A stretch of DNA of 44,050 bases from Escherichia phage BEU33: the sequence record OM632667.1; one strand, written 5' to 3'. The translations under genes were made by a program, and so were the position numbers. Under the pieces are notes generated by a model. That model was not told the DNA's origin. It worked only from the letters and a program-made list of their open reading frames with translations, and made no database searches. Every line of letters begins with the position of its first letter. Position 1 is the first letter of the stretch. Shown here one piece after another: positions 4,341 through 41,221 of this stretch.

Positions 4341-4346
4341 AACTGA

Positions 4347-4375
4347 ATAGTACCCTATTATATTGGTGTGTGCAA
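4347..4375 (-). promoter_or_regulatory. promoter-like module TTGCAC-N17-TACTAT on minus strand
   Basis: Same hexamers and spacing as modules at 13582-13610, 37491-37519, 38709-38737; here it faces the terminator, so function is unclear. Confidence 0.3.
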
Positions 4376-13566: not shown

Positions 13567-13581
13567 CGTTGGTGTAAGTGA

Positions 13582-13610
13582 ATAGTACGCTATTATATTG
13601 GGGAGTGCAA
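13582..13610 (-). promoter_or_regulatory. promoter TTGCAC-N17-TACTAT driving the minus-strand island
   Basis: Hexamers and spacing read on minus strand; -10 ends about 15 nt upstream of the Imm-like start codon. Confidence 0.5.
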
Positions 13611-13717
13611 GTAGTGTGCTAGAATAATTTTGCGCCTAGTGTCGCACACGAAAAGCGGGTGGTTCCCGTCTGGCGCATTTCCTTTAACCAGTAACCTCTT
13701 AACCAAAGGATTAAAGA

Positions 13718-30693: not shown

Positions 30694-30722
30694 ACTATAA
30701 TAGCTAACTATTCAGGTGTCAA
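30694..30722 (-). promoter_or_regulatory. sigma70-like promoter TTGACA-N17-TATAGT on minus strand
   Basis: Consensus -35 with 17-bp spacer, about 60 nt upstream of the SSB-like start. Confidence 0.6.
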
Positions 30723-33586: not shown

Positions 33587-33616
33587 ACTATAATAGCGAA
33601 CTATTCATGATGTCAA
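33587..33616 (-). promoter_or_regulatory. sigma70-like promoter TTGACA-N18-TATAGT on minus strand
   Basis: Consensus -35, about 25 nt upstream of the 33558 start; divergent from the HTH gene. Confidence 0.6.
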
Positions 33617-33680
33617 TGGGCTTTTCTAAAATAATTAATATGGTACTATTCACACATCAACTGACTAAGGAGTAATTGAC

Positions 33681-37490: not shown

Positions 37491-37519
37491 TTGCACACCC
37501 CAACATAATAGGATACTAT
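37491..37519 (+). promoter_or_regulatory. promoter TTGCAC-N17-TACTAT
   Basis: -10 ends about 35 nt upstream of ATG 37554. Confidence 0.5.
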
Positions 37520-37553
37520 TCACTTATCGAAACGAGACAGAGGAGTGAGGGTT

Positions 37554-37745
37554 ATGTTTAAGAAGGGTCAGTTGGTTAAAACTAAACGCGGAGGGCAATA
37601 TGTATTAGTGTTGCAGGACGAGAGCGAGTATGACGAGGATAATCTGGTTGACGTATGGGGTCTGGTAAGAAAGAAAACTGGGTTCGCCTCACGCGATAAT
37701 TTAGAACTCATCGGCAACAATTTTAAATTCAAAGGGGTGAAGTGA
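37554..37745 (+). CDS. hypothetical protein
   Basis: ATG 37554 with RBS GAGGAGTGAGGG. Confidence 0.4.
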   Translation: MFKKGQLVKTKRGGQYVLVLQDESEYDEDNLVDVWGLVRKKTGFASRDNLELIGNNFKFKGVK

Positions 37746-38560: not shown

Positions 38561-38594
38561 CAGGTCAATAGTTTACTATTTGGCTTTGTGACTT

Positions 38595-38630
38595 ACGCTG
38601 CTACACAGCAGCGTATCATTTTTCTCATTT
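38595..38630 (+). terminator. rho-independent terminator ACGCTGCT-acac-AGCAGCGT plus T-tract
   Basis: Perfect 8-bp stem then ATCATTTTTCTCATTTTT. Confidence 0.65.
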
Positions 38631-38708: not shown

Positions 38709-38737
38709 TTGCACGCTAAGATAGAATAGGCTACTAT
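38709..38737 (+). promoter_or_regulatory. promoter TTGCAC-N17-TACTAT
   Basis: Same hexamers and spacing as 37491-37519; precedes gene 38794. Confidence 0.5.
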
Positions 38738-38793
38738 TCATTTACACAAACGAGAGGAGAGACAGAAGATGAATGTAGTGGCGAGGGAAGGGG

Positions 38794-39282
38794 ATGGGGA
38801 TGGTGAGTAGCAAAAACGAAGTATTCGAGTACCTGATTGACCAGTTACGGCAGCACGTAAATAGCCACCCGCACAAGCAGCAGTGCGAAGACCTGGCGCA
38901 TGAGGTGCAGTCACTCAAGAATCAGTTACGTGATGCGTCAGCACTGGTGGCGGAGTTACATGAAACAATAAAACTAATGAACGAGGACTTTAACCGTGCA
39001 ACCGGGCGAGGTGGCTCACTGCCGAAAGGGGAGAGCTACGTAGTAGGTGAACATGGGCCCGAGCAACCCGGTTGCCGTAAGGAAGATACTCAGGAATGCG
39101 AGCACTCTTGGATTATTATGCTTGGGTTGTTTCTCAGCGAAGGCAATACGAACAACGTTCCTGGTAGTGAGCTTTGCTCTAAATGTGGTAAACGTGAGTG
39201 GGACGACAAGGTATATAAACCGAAAAACGATACTCAGGAATGTGAGCATGAGTGGAGATGTAAGACGGTTTTTTGGCAATAG
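38794..39282 (+). CDS. hypothetical Cys/His-rich protein with internal repeated DTQECEH(S/E)W motif
   Basis: Two copies of the motif about 45 residues apart; RBS GAGGGAAGGGG. Confidence 0.45.
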   Translation: MGMVSSKNEVFEYLIDQLRQHVNSHPHKQQCEDLAHEVQSLKNQLRDASALVAELHETIKLMNEDFNRATGRGGSLPKGESYVVGEHGPEQPGCRKEDTQECEHSWIIMLGLFLSEGNTNNVPGSELCSKCGKREWDDKVYKPKNDTQECEHEWRCKTVFWQ

Positions 39283-39327
39283 ACCTGGTGTTCCGTATTG
39301 CCGTAAATGTGGTGTGGAGGCGAAGCA

Positions 39328-39531
39328 ATGACCAGCATCTTATTTATCTGGGTACTATCCGCGGGCCAGATGCAACTAGCGGCATCAGAAACGTTTTATT
39401 CGATGGAGGCGTGCCAGTCAGCGGCGCGTGCCGCAGAGAACGCGCACTTCCTGTTTCAGGGCGACAAGCCCATCGATTCAGAGGTACGCGCTATCTGCTC
39501 ACCTAAGCGACTTGGTAAACAGGAGAAGTGA
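39328..39531 (+). CDS. small protein with N-terminal signal-peptide-like segment
   Basis: MTSILFIWVLSAGQMQLAASE hydrophobic N-terminus; RBS GGAGG. Confidence 0.4.
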   Translation: MTSILFIWVLSAGQMQLAASETFYSMEACQSAARAAENAHFLFQGDKPIDSEVRAICSPKRLGKQEK

Positions 39532-39533
39532 TT

Positions 39534-39716
39534 ATGGTGCGGAGATATACCTACGACCAGATATTCGGGTTTACTCCTGATGTTGAGGGCGTGTTAGTGC
39601 TTTACGAAGATTACGCGAAACTTGAAGCTGAGTTACAGAAATACAAAGACCAGTACCCTGATTATGTCGAGTGCGCGAACTGTGGGTCGGTTACACATGT
39701 GGAGGGAGTGGAGTGA
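39534..39716 (+). CDS. hypothetical protein
   Basis: RBS AGGAG; C-terminal CANCGS. Confidence 0.35.
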   Translation: MVRRYTYDQIFGFTPDVEGVLVLYEDYAKLEAELQKYKDQYPDYVECANCGSVTHVEGVE

Positions 39717-40009
39717 TGTCGTTAGCAACTGACATCCTGAAACGAAGCGGCCTTGCGCCGCTGTCACCGAGAGCGAAGACACGTATACACAAGCGTCGCC
39801 GTAACGTGCTGTACCCAGAGATTCAGGACAGACGTAAAGCTATCCGCGCCTGTGGATTCCAGAACGGGAAGGCTGTGAATCTCGGTGAGTTTAAAACGCA
39901 GGAGCGCGCTGCAATCGCTAATCGGTTATTTAATTACTGGAAATCGCTGGGATACGATGATATTCCGACGAAACCACAGAGACGACAATACATCTGGCGT
40001 CATAAATAA
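39716..40009 (+). CDS. hypothetical DNA-binding protein, AP2-like domain
   Basis: GKAVNLGEFKTQERAAIANRLF resembles the AP2 fold signature; ATG overlaps upstream TGA. Confidence 0.35.
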   Translation: MSLATDILKRSGLAPLSPRAKTRIHKRRRNVLYPEIQDRRKAIRACGFQNGKAVNLGEFKTQERAAIANRLFNYWKSLGYDDIPTKPQRRQYIWRHK

Positions 40010-40039
40010 ACCGTTATTAAGATAATTCCTAACCGTGCT

Positions 40040-40079
40040 ATCCTCCAGTTACTGCATACTTAATACGCACCTGGAGGAT
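40040..40079 (+). promoter_or_regulatory. inverted repeat ATCCTCCAG-N22-CTGGAGGAT whose 3' arm contains the holin RBS
   Basis: Perfect 9-bp arms; GGAGG of the holin RBS is inside the 3' arm. Confidence 0.4.
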
Positions 40080-40084
40080 TCATC

Positions 40085-40393
40085 TTGGATAAATTTACTG
40101 AAACAGTGACAGGCTGGCTTCTCGCTGCCGCGCTAGCCGGAGGGGTAATCGGACTACGACAACATAAGTCTGTTATTTCTGGCCCCATCGACGGATTCTG
40201 CTTTATCGCAACCGGCTTCACTTGCGCTGTATTCGGCGCGCCTCTTGCCGCTCAATGGTTCGGTATTACCGGAGAGCGCGAGATAGCTGGCCTCGGATTC
40301 ATCATCGCAATTCTCTGGATGCCCATCTATTCCCGTCTCTCCGGTATCGTCTCTGGAGAATACATCGCTCGTCGAGGAGGCACAGATGAATGA
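40085..40393 (+). CDS. holin (three predicted TM segments)
   Basis: Three hydrophobic segments, charged C-terminus; first gene of lysis cassette; TTG start with GGAGG. Confidence 0.55.
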   Translation: MDKFTETVTGWLLAAALAGGVIGLRQHKSVISGPIDGFCFIATGFTCAVFGAPLAAQWFGITGEREIAGLGFIIAILWMPIYSRLSGIVSGEYIARRGGTDE

Positions 40394-40658
40394 GTTATTC
40401 TGGTTCGGTGGTATGCTGGCAATCGGGGGCACATCGCTGTTTAATGTGTATCATCCCAGCGTGGACGACGGATTATTTGGCCGGGTGCTCTATATCCTGA
40501 CTGCCATCGTCTGTGCTGCCGGATGTATCCACCTGTTACAGGGCAGCATGTCACCAACGCTGCCTGAGACGTTAATCACATTAGTTGCGCTGCGTCAGAT
40601 TCGCCAGGTGTGGCTGTCATACGGAGGACATAAGCGTGTCTCGAAATATTTCAGATAA
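40386..40658 (+). CDS. second holin-like membrane protein (holin or antiholin)
   Basis: Two hydrophobic segments; overlaps both holin stop and lysozyme start. Confidence 0.45.
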   Translation: MNELFWFGGMLAIGGTSLFNVYHPSVDDGLFGRVLYILTAIVCAAGCIHLLQGSMSPTLPETLITLVALRQIRQVWLSYGGHKRVSKYFR

Positions 40659-41124
40659 TGGATTGCATTTTACCGCCGCGTTCGAGGGATTCCGAGGAAC
40701 TGCGTATCGCGCTACACCGAATGAGAAGTACCTGACTATTGGGTATGGAAGCTATGGCCCGCATGTTAAGGCGGGGCAGACCATCACTCCAGGACAAGGC
40801 CTCCTGTTACTTAATCGCGATATGGCTAAAGCCGTAGCTGCGGTTGATGCGGCAGCGCACCATTCACTGACACAGGCACAGTTCGACGCTGTGTGTGACC
40901 TGGTCTACAACGCAGGCGCTGGCGTGATTGCCGCTACCACGGGCACAGGTAAGGCGCTGCGTTCTGGTGACATCGAGACGCTGCGGGCTAAGCTGACACT
41001 GTTCATCAACCAGAACGGCAGACCACTACTCGGCCTGCGTCGCCGTACAGCAGGTCGTCTGGCGCTGTTTGACGGTAAACCGTGGCAAGAGGCGGAGGCA
41101 ATTGGGCGCGCGGTGAAAGGTTGA
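40636..41124 (+). CDS. endolysin, lysozyme (GH24-like muramidase)
   Basis: Pattern ISDNGLHFTAAFEGFRG..YLTIGYG..QFDAVCDLVYNAG resembles the P22 gp19/T4 lysozyme family; GTG 40636 with RBS GGAGGA preferred. Confidence 0.85.
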   Translation: MSRNISDNGLHFTAAFEGFRGTAYRATPNEKYLTIGYGSYGPHVKAGQTITPGQGLLLLNRDMAKAVAAVDAAAHHSLTQAQFDAVCDLVYNAGAGVIAATTGTGKALRSGDIETLRAKLTLFINQNGRPLLGLRRRTAGRLALFDGKPWQEAEAIGRAVKG

Positions 41125-41190
41125 CACCTAAGACTAATCCGACGATACTTAAATCACCTCCTGTTCCATCCCTCTGCTCTCCAGTTTTAT

Positions 41191-41221
41191 CCCGGCCCTG
41201 ACCCAGCCGGGATTTTTTTTT
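41191..41221 (+). terminator. rho-independent terminator CCCGGC-N9-GCCGGG plus T9
   Basis: GC stem followed by ATTTTTTTTT after the lysis cassette. Confidence 0.7.

Follow-up and report, generated by a model that had tools for sequence, protein, structure and literature searches.

The 75-nt gap ahead of the holin gene of Escherichia phage BEU33 encodes a conserved RNA hairpin that buries the Shine-Dalgarno sequence of the holin. With a little more than even confidence, we propose that this hairpin is an insulator with an embedded host-type promoter, which would discriminate between classes of transcript in the manner of T4 gene e. The proposal draws on the stem, its conservation, the RNA-compatible substitutions within it, the difference in opening energy between two kinds of transcript and the recurrence of the layout in other lineages, all of which were computed here. 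The window (the whole stretch of DNA analysed, 44,050 nucleotides, sequence record OM632667.1) represents a Kagunavirus (Guernseyvirinae) siphophage.

Under the proposed scheme, RNAs that read through from the genes at 38794-40009 would carry both arms of the hairpin. The anti-Shine-Dalgarno arm AUCCUCCAG would pair with CUGGAGGAU and bury GGAGG, so that the holin would not be initiated on read-through RNA, and the hairpin may also weakly terminate part of this RNA. The DNA of the 5' arm would double as the -10 element of an extended -10, sigma-70-type promoter (TGcTATCCT, 40036-44), and RNA polymerase would start near A40051, beyond the 5' arm, giving an mRNA without the anti-Shine-Dalgarno strand and with an open initiation region. 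Holin synthesis would thus be set by the embedded promoter alone and be uncoupled from upstream transcription. Within this scheme, we infer the activity of the promoter, its start site, its timing and the existence of read-through RNA.

The hairpin lies between the upstream gene, which ends at 40009, and the holin start at 40085 (Table 1). Over 39600-41200, Escherichia phage BEU35 has the same sequence (100% identity), and about 100 further E. coli phages match this region at 88-99% identity. The upstream gene closes a run of overlapping genes (38794-40009) on the same strand as the holin and is the presumed origin of read-through transcripts into the hairpin; a scan found no + strand terminator-like site from 38615 to the hairpin (40040). 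Among relatives, the gene at this place is either the phrog_9632 gene or, in many of them, an HslV-like peptidase ("ATP-dependent protease") gene, with the intergenic module unchanged. Near-identity begins at about 40010, with the junction at about 40005-40013, as seen with loci L005-L008, L010, L019, L020, L022, L023 and others. As the sequence is near-identical from about 40010 on, the conserved regulatory module marks a recombination junction.

Table 1. Positions of the features discussed, numbered on the window.
Feature	Position	Strand	Basis
Upstream gene, 97 aa, phrog_9632, function not assigned	39716..40009	+	ORF list, PHROG match
Conserved intergenic box TTATTA(A/G)GATA	40014..40024	+	kept in all Kagunavirus-type loci
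Extended -10-like motif TGCTATCCT (TGnTATCCT; TGcTATCCT in window)	40036..40044	+	conservation, sequence match
5' arm ATCCTCCAG, anti-Shine-Dalgarno strand	40040..40048	+	inverted repeat, folding
22-nt loop	40049..40070	+	folding
Predicted transcription start, A	40051	+	promoter geometry: 7 nt past -10 hexamer, 3 nt past 5' arm
3' arm CTGGAGGAT, contains GGAGG at 40073-77	40071..40079	+	inverted repeat, folding
Holin, TTG start, 102 aa, phrog_2359	40085..40393	+	ORF list, PHROG, homologues
Second small membrane protein, holin/antiholin, 90 aa, phrog_2508	40386..40658	+	PHROG, annotation of relatives
Endolysin, Phage_lysozyme, PF00959	40636..41124	+	domain match
TGAATAGTANCCTATTATNT copies, + strand	4344-4363, 13579-13598	+	motif count
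TGAATAGTANCCTATTATNT copies, - strand	30695-30714, 33588-33607, 33633-33652, 37503-37522, 38721-38740	-	motif count

The first holin is annotated in relatives as a class I holin/antiholin with three transmembrane domains. The second holin/antiholin has its own GAGGAGG ribosome site, and its start overlaps the end of the first holin; the endolysin start is probably the GTG at 40636, downstream of a GGAGG. Comparison with homologues indicates that the TTG at 40085 is the true holin start, because the MDKFTE N-terminus aligns with MDKLNE of the ATG-initiated Dhillonvirus homologues and the length of 102 aa recurs in 15 of 18 database homologues. The holin N-terminus (MDKFTETVTGW) contains no second Met or other start served by a Shine-Dalgarno sequence, and we rejected a lambda-like dual start on the ground that the holin has a single one. 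The cassette is organised differently in L045, an ENA metagenome contig (1501-2313) that has a single holin gene, 68% identical, with the endolysin directly after it and without the second holin/antiholin.

A preliminary description of this locus reported a perfect 9-bp inverted repeat with a 22-nt spacer and placed the Shine-Dalgarno sequence of a TTG-initiated holin within the 3' arm. Both points hold: ATCCTCCAG and CTGGAGGAT are complementary, and the homologues support the start. Folding of 40030-40100 gave the hairpin as both the minimum-energy and the centroid structure, at -16.7 kcal/mol (z = -3.1; 0 of 200 shuffles fold as well). The hairpin persists in a 151-nt context and is recovered by RNAalifold from 18 distinct relatives. 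GGAGG lies 7 nt ahead of the TTG (40085-40087), and the record of phage Sciku annotates the 3' arm as a ribosome-binding site. A 9-bp inverted repeat is, taken alone, at chance level; inverted repeats of at least 9 nt within 40 nt number 28 in the window, and of the 25 that were listed, the arms are apart in four, with loops of 4-22 nt in three of these. It is because of its conservation that the hairpin stands above chance. In opening cost, the holin initiation region ranks 4th of the 71 genes in the window, which is high and not unique. The gene starts at 37554, 29942 (- strand) and 8778 have opening costs of 11.9-12.4 kcal/mol, equal to or above that of the holin, and the start at 37554 is shortly downstream of one copy of the repeated promoter-like motif described below. 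Rfam gave no match to 40000-40100 at the gathering threshold and no + strand match at E values up to 1; the weak overlap that was found is with STnc500, on the - strand only (14 bits vs a gathering score of 44). Matches to TGNTATCCT with at most one mismatch are not enriched in the window (23 observed vs 24.6 expected).

The preliminary description further suggested that holin translation depends on opening of the stem and that this could time lysis. The first part stands insofar as the hairpin is real, conserved and buries the Shine-Dalgarno sequence in RNAs with both arms. The lysis clock fared less well. Exposing the region between the Shine-Dalgarno sequence and the start codon takes 14.4 kcal/mol in read-through RNA vs 3.9 kcal/mol in RNA from A40051, and a barrier of 14.4 kcal/mol would all but abolish translation. 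Ribosomes on the upstream ORF cannot unwind the stem, because the stop codon of this ORF falls 31 nt before it, or about 15 nt in Sciku-type relatives, where the upstream gene is the other one; coupling of holin translation to this ORF was rejected on these same distances. The extended -10-like motif overlapping the 5' arm predicts transcripts that start beyond the arm, and the layout recurs in three sequence-unrelated lineages. With such a barrier and with upstream ribosomes stopping short, the holin would have to come from RNA that lacks the hairpin. By analogy with T4 gene e, the hairpin is more likely to sort transcript classes than to throttle one mRNA.

The alternative that survives best, although we regard it as unlikely, is that the hairpin is a constitutive throttle: it would be present in all holin mRNA, and its rare opening together with the weak TTG start would set the time of lysis. 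The conservation of both the hairpin and the TTG start would fit this, as would the known effect of holin translation rate on lysis time in lambda (bioRxiv 10.1101/2025.05.14.654169) and the fact that a consensus scan called no promoter in the window. Moreover, an alternative -10 hexamer, GATAAT (40021-26), would place the transcription start at about 40033, upstream of the whole hairpin. However, an opening cost of 14.4 kcal/mol amounts to near-zero initiation, not tuning, and natural variants strengthen the stem (to 11-14 bp and down to -25 kcal/mol), which is hard to square with fine tuning. GATAAT is itself not conserved, and we rejected it as the -10 because its key final T is lost in L045 (GATACC) and L006 (GATAAA). 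Finally, the equivalent hairpin of the sister lineages scores as a full terminator right next to the ATG, so that a throttle would have no holin mRNA to act on. If all holin mRNA did carry the hairpin, translation across a barrier of about 14 kcal/mol would itself need explaining.

The insulator reading depends on a promoter within the module. Extended -10 sigma-70 promoters carry TG at -15/-14 and the A2 and T6 of the hexamer, and the -35 element is dispensable. In the 18 distinct sequences, TG, T1, A2, T3 and T6 are all invariant, and it is from this pattern that we infer TGnTATCCT to be a promoter, with an RNA start predicted near A40051. The hexamer TATCCT (40039-44) matches the -10 consensus at four of six positions and has no recognisable -35, and the consensus promoter scan calls none at the hairpin. 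ATCCT doubles as the first 5 nt of the 5' arm. Five of the six -10 positions thus fall in the stem, which confounds the conservation of the motif. TG and T40039 lie outside the main stem and are invariant in the 18 distinct relatives, with the "n" alternating between C and G; however, RNAalifold pairs GUG (40035-37) with CAU (40081-83), so the conservation of TG could need no promoter. If transcription starts at A40051, the loop provides the first 20 nt of the 5' UTR. A promoter inside the loop (CATACT or TTAATA as the -10) was rejected, as the loop of L045 is unrelated and has no such hexamer.

The conserved intergenic box sits in the -35 region of the proposed promoter and is unlike TTGACA. 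It is unique in the window and is kept also in the 68%-identity locus L045 despite differing flanks. Possibly, it is a factor site or an RNA pairing partner. In the literature, we found no mapped transcription starts or transcript ends for Kagunavirus or Dhillonvirus; the sole Kagunavirus RNA-seq study found, on phage K1B4, contains no start-site mapping and classes the lysozyme gene as "middle" (PMC12645636).

The same layout precedes homologous holins (32-50% identity) with unrelated upstream sequences in Dhillonvirus, in the KW1E/KLB22 group and in Eiauvirus. In Dhillonvirus (HK578, SO-1 and a further 14 loci), a 12-bp hairpin has TGATATAGT overlapping its 5' arm and is followed by T6 and the ATG; a divergent member carries C/G insertions that compensate each other across the two arms. 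In KW1E_UTAR and Klebsiella phage KLB22, a canonical TTGACC-17-TACTAT has its -10 ending at the base just ahead of the hairpin, which is followed by T7-8 and ATG. In Edwardsiella phage eiAU-183, TGTTACCAT abuts a 9-bp hairpin, then TTTTCTT and ATG. In each of the four lineages, the +1 is predicted to lie at the seventh position of the 5' arm or beyond it. In real promoters, a TG extension and a good -35 substitute for each other; here, the lineages without the TG extension have a good -35, and there is no good -35 where TG is present. In the sister lineages, the opening cost falls from 13-15 kcal/mol in read-through RNA to 2-3 kcal/mol from the predicted start, for example from 14.8 to 2.4 kcal/mol in HK578 and from 12.9 to 3.2 kcal/mol in KW1E. 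In L045, the hairpin lies outside the global minimum-energy fold of a 180-nt context, and the two costs are 5.3 and 4.1 kcal/mol.

The layout is absent in the more distant homologues ep3, PPpW-3 and Wc4-1, partial in Scapp and ambiguous in Amjad_SA, and no further lineage emerged when viral contigs were scanned for the KW1E and L099 holins. In eiAU-183 (L125, NC_023555.1; holin 468-809), the ATG at 468 follows the hairpin and U-tract, and its product, MDLWQK..., matches the MDKLNEW N-terminus of homologues. Judging by this alignment, the annotated start (locus position 522) is probably 18 codons too short.

Intrinsic terminators consist of a G+C-rich stem, a loop of about 3-8 nt and a U-tract directly after the stem. 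A second alternative, likewise unlikely, is that the hairpin is such a terminator closing the upstream operon, that the Shine-Dalgarno sequence lies in its arm only from compactness and that it has no translational role; termination as such would be compatible with an embedded promoter. The hairpins of L045 (whose stem is homologous to that of the window), HK578, KW1E and eiAU-183 pass a terminator-like scan and have U-rich tails, and in the record of KLB22 the ribosome site of the holin is covered by an annotated terminator. The L045 hairpin, with two G.U pairs and a UUUAUUUU tail, is among those that score. In the window, however, the scan makes no call, because of the 22-nt loop and of a tail, TCATCTTG, in which only four of eight nt are T. 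The fBC-Eco01 record, whose predictions are described as ARNold, has no terminator at a hairpin of identical sequence. Kagunavirus kept the stem and the Shine-Dalgarno pairing and lost the terminator features, which suggests that the pairing itself is selected. The terminator-scoring hairpins of the sister lineages end 6-8 nt ahead of the ATG. As they score as terminators next to the start codon, the holin would there be expressible only from RNA that starts inside the hairpin; under the insulator reading, read-through RNA in these lineages would also be terminated at the hairpin.

The alignment of 42 relatives shows a nucleotide diversity of 0.02-0.05 at 40037-40111 vs 0.13-0.26 in the holin coding sequence and 0.2-0.36 in the endolysin, making this stretch the diversity minimum of the lysis cassette. 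A stretch of 101 nt that includes the hairpin shows at least 90% identity in each of the 120 GenBank phages (Kagunaviruses) that it matched, and the nine core pairs are all kept in 18 distinct relatives. The 3' arm does not vary in any relative. Variants of the 5' arm are limited to A40047G (four sequences, on three different loop backgrounds) and C40046T (one sequence, L045), both of which retain a G.U pair in the + strand RNA. Next to the arm, T40049G gains two pairs, and in Salmonella-type phages T40053G, C40066T, C40068T and C40070A turn the loop into extra pairs and give a stem of 14 bp. Overall, variant stems are lengthened to 11-14 bp, and the + strand hairpin keeps an energy of -14 to -22 kcal/mol in every variant. 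Because the changes keep G.U pairs or add pairs, and because the - strand version of the hairpin drops to -5.5 kcal/mol in L045, the substitutions point to a + strand RNA helix rather than a DNA operator. Covariation in the alignment of relatives is not above that of shuffles, since the 3' arm is the Shine-Dalgarno sequence and never varies.

The loop is nearly invariant within Kagunavirus, and in L045 it is an unrelated sequence of 15 nt. Its conservation within Kagunavirus and its A/U-rich sequence (UUACUGCAUACUUAAUACGCAC) could be taken to mean that an endonuclease such as RNase E cuts the loop and frees the ribosome site later in infection. We consider this very improbable, given the unrelated loop of L045 and the short loops of the other lineages; a cut loop would still leave the 9-bp duplex, and any cleavage site is hypothetical. 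Even less credible is a DNA operator with two 9-bp half-sites, 31 bp centre to centre (about three helical turns), bound by a dimeric phage regulator. A perfect inverted repeat with half-sites in phase, in a strongly conserved region, would suit such a regulator. However, the one-sided A-to-G and C-to-T changes break the symmetry of the DNA and keep the G.U pairs of the RNA, the shortening of the spacer from 22 to 15 nt in L045 destroys the phasing, other variants turn the spacer into a contiguous helix, and the 3' half-site is simply the Shine-Dalgarno sequence; we rejected the operator for this pattern of substitutions and the altered spacer. A functionless chance repeat is just as hard to believe, for although the window has several perfect 9-bp repeats with short spacers and three other genes equally structured at their initiation regions, this region is the diversity minimum of the cassette, its substitutions preserve pairing and its layout recurs in sequence-unrelated lineages.

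Returning to the insulator, two consequences limit what it could do. If the promoter is a constitutive sigma-70 promoter, the scheme by itself would give no delay of the holin, unlike a T4 late promoter. In addition, the block would be incomplete, as the second holin/antiholin and the endolysin have their own ribosome sites and could still be made from read-through RNA. A joint and more tentative reading, which we doubt more than we believe, is that ATCCTCCAG is dual-coded and that the module is a general holin insulator which also sets the ratio of the first to the second holin. As DNA, ATCCTCCAG would be most of an unusual -10, TATCCT, and as RNA it would be the anti-Shine-Dalgarno strand; the CC of TATCCT would then depart from the consensus because pairing with the GG of the Shine-Dalgarno sequence is required. 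The insulator would be common to the Kagunavirus, Dhillonvirus, KW1E-like and Eiauvirus siphophages, which are either Dhillonviruses or similar to these in the size of the genome and in the lysis cassette. Read-through RNA could yield the second membrane protein and endolysin only, and promoter-proximal RNA all three proteins. If true, this would be the transcript-class equivalent of the S107:S105 ratio control of lambda.

Several other elements in the window were recorded along the way. A 20-nt motif, TGAATAGTANCCTATTATNT, occurs in seven copies vs 0.01 expected; it corresponds to the motif that was found with PHIRE and named "phage promoter" in the fBC-Eco01 paper (PMC9825357). In four copies, the similarity extends to a consensus of about 45 nt that ends in GTGCAAG and reads TTGCAC-17-TACTAT on the opposite strand, for example at 38709-38737 (+), just past a terminator-like hairpin (38594-38615) and ahead of gene 38794. 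Judging from these sequences, the motif is possibly an operator element or a promoter that fires in both directions. At 13629-13693 (+), some 30 nt past the end of a copy, is an Rfam match to int-alpA RNA (RF02996; 36.6 bits vs a gathering score of 35.8, E = 5e-4).

At 41121-41221 (+), a promoter-like TTGACA-17-GATACT overlaps the endolysin stop codon and is followed by about 35 nt of C/U-rich sequence (CACCUCCUGUUCCAUCCCUCUGCUCUCCAG) and a strong terminator (CCCGGCCCTGACCCAGCCGGG and T10), with no ORF. The element could be a small RNA or a leader, about 65 nt long. Relatives whose upstream flanks differ have kept it, and its terminator stem carries compensatory changes in L029. Its Rfam matches, all sub-threshold, are to small RNAs of the anti-Shine-Dalgarno type. 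Among the duplexes predicted for this candidate, the best (-33.7 kcal/mol) involves the initiation region of gene 38794 and not the holin. As a trans-acting anti-Shine-Dalgarno RNA (41150-41221), it ranks the holin 41st of about 71 targets; it is not holin-specific and was rejected in that role.

For phages, the timing of lysis is central to fitness. It also matters in practice for Kagunaviruses intended for therapy, as many are being isolated against uropathogenic and K1 E. coli. If the insulator reading is true, holin output is set by a portable module of about 50 bp, made up of a promoter, an anti-Shine-Dalgarno arm and the Shine-Dalgarno sequence, that isolates a lethal gene from upstream transcription. 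It would explain why the most conserved stretch of the cassette is non-coding and acts as a recombination junction, would extend the T4 gene e principle to siphophages that depend on the host RNA polymerase and would offer a compact insulator part for engineering.

Among known systems, the nearest are the T4 genes e, soc, 49 and I-TevI and Aeh1 mobE, for which initiation-region hairpins with internal late promoters are described (McPheeters et al., 1986; reviewed in PMC3014915). In the case of gene e, a lysis gene has its Shine-Dalgarno sequence buried by a hairpin in transcripts from upstream; BEU33 resembles it, with GGAGG in the 3' arm of a -16.7 kcal/mol hairpin that takes 14.4 kcal/mol to open. 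Unlike gene e, the BEU33 gene encodes a holin, not an endolysin, and belongs to a small siphophage. Its putative promoter is of the sigma-70 extended -10 type, in contrast to the gp55-dependent late promoter of T4; with a host sigma-70 type, late timing would not be built in. A further difference is that in the sister lineages of BEU33 the hairpin also scores as an intrinsic terminator, and the BEU33 case is a prediction from sequence. The sdi structure of lambda S is likewise a stem-loop just upstream of a holin that controls ribosome access to the Shine-Dalgarno sequence and affects lysis (bioRxiv 10.1101/2025.05.14.654169). That short stem-loop covers nt -21 to -7 and divides initiation between an antiholin start (Met1) and a holin start (Met3), whereas the BEU33 holin begins at one codon only, lacks a Met-Lys-Met motif and is preceded by a far more stable stem. 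In overlapping terminator-promoter modules, the 5' arm of an intrinsic terminator lies over the -10 of the next promoter. The hairpins of HK578, KW1E/KLB22 and eiAU-183 are of this kind, in that they pass as terminators and have a -10-like hexamer abutting or overlapping the 5' arm; the window differs in its 22-nt loop and poor U-tract, and the property that is conserved is the pairing of the Shine-Dalgarno and anti-Shine-Dalgarno strands. By analogy with these systems, the best reading of the element is that it represents a new case of the T4 gene e logic in another group of phages.
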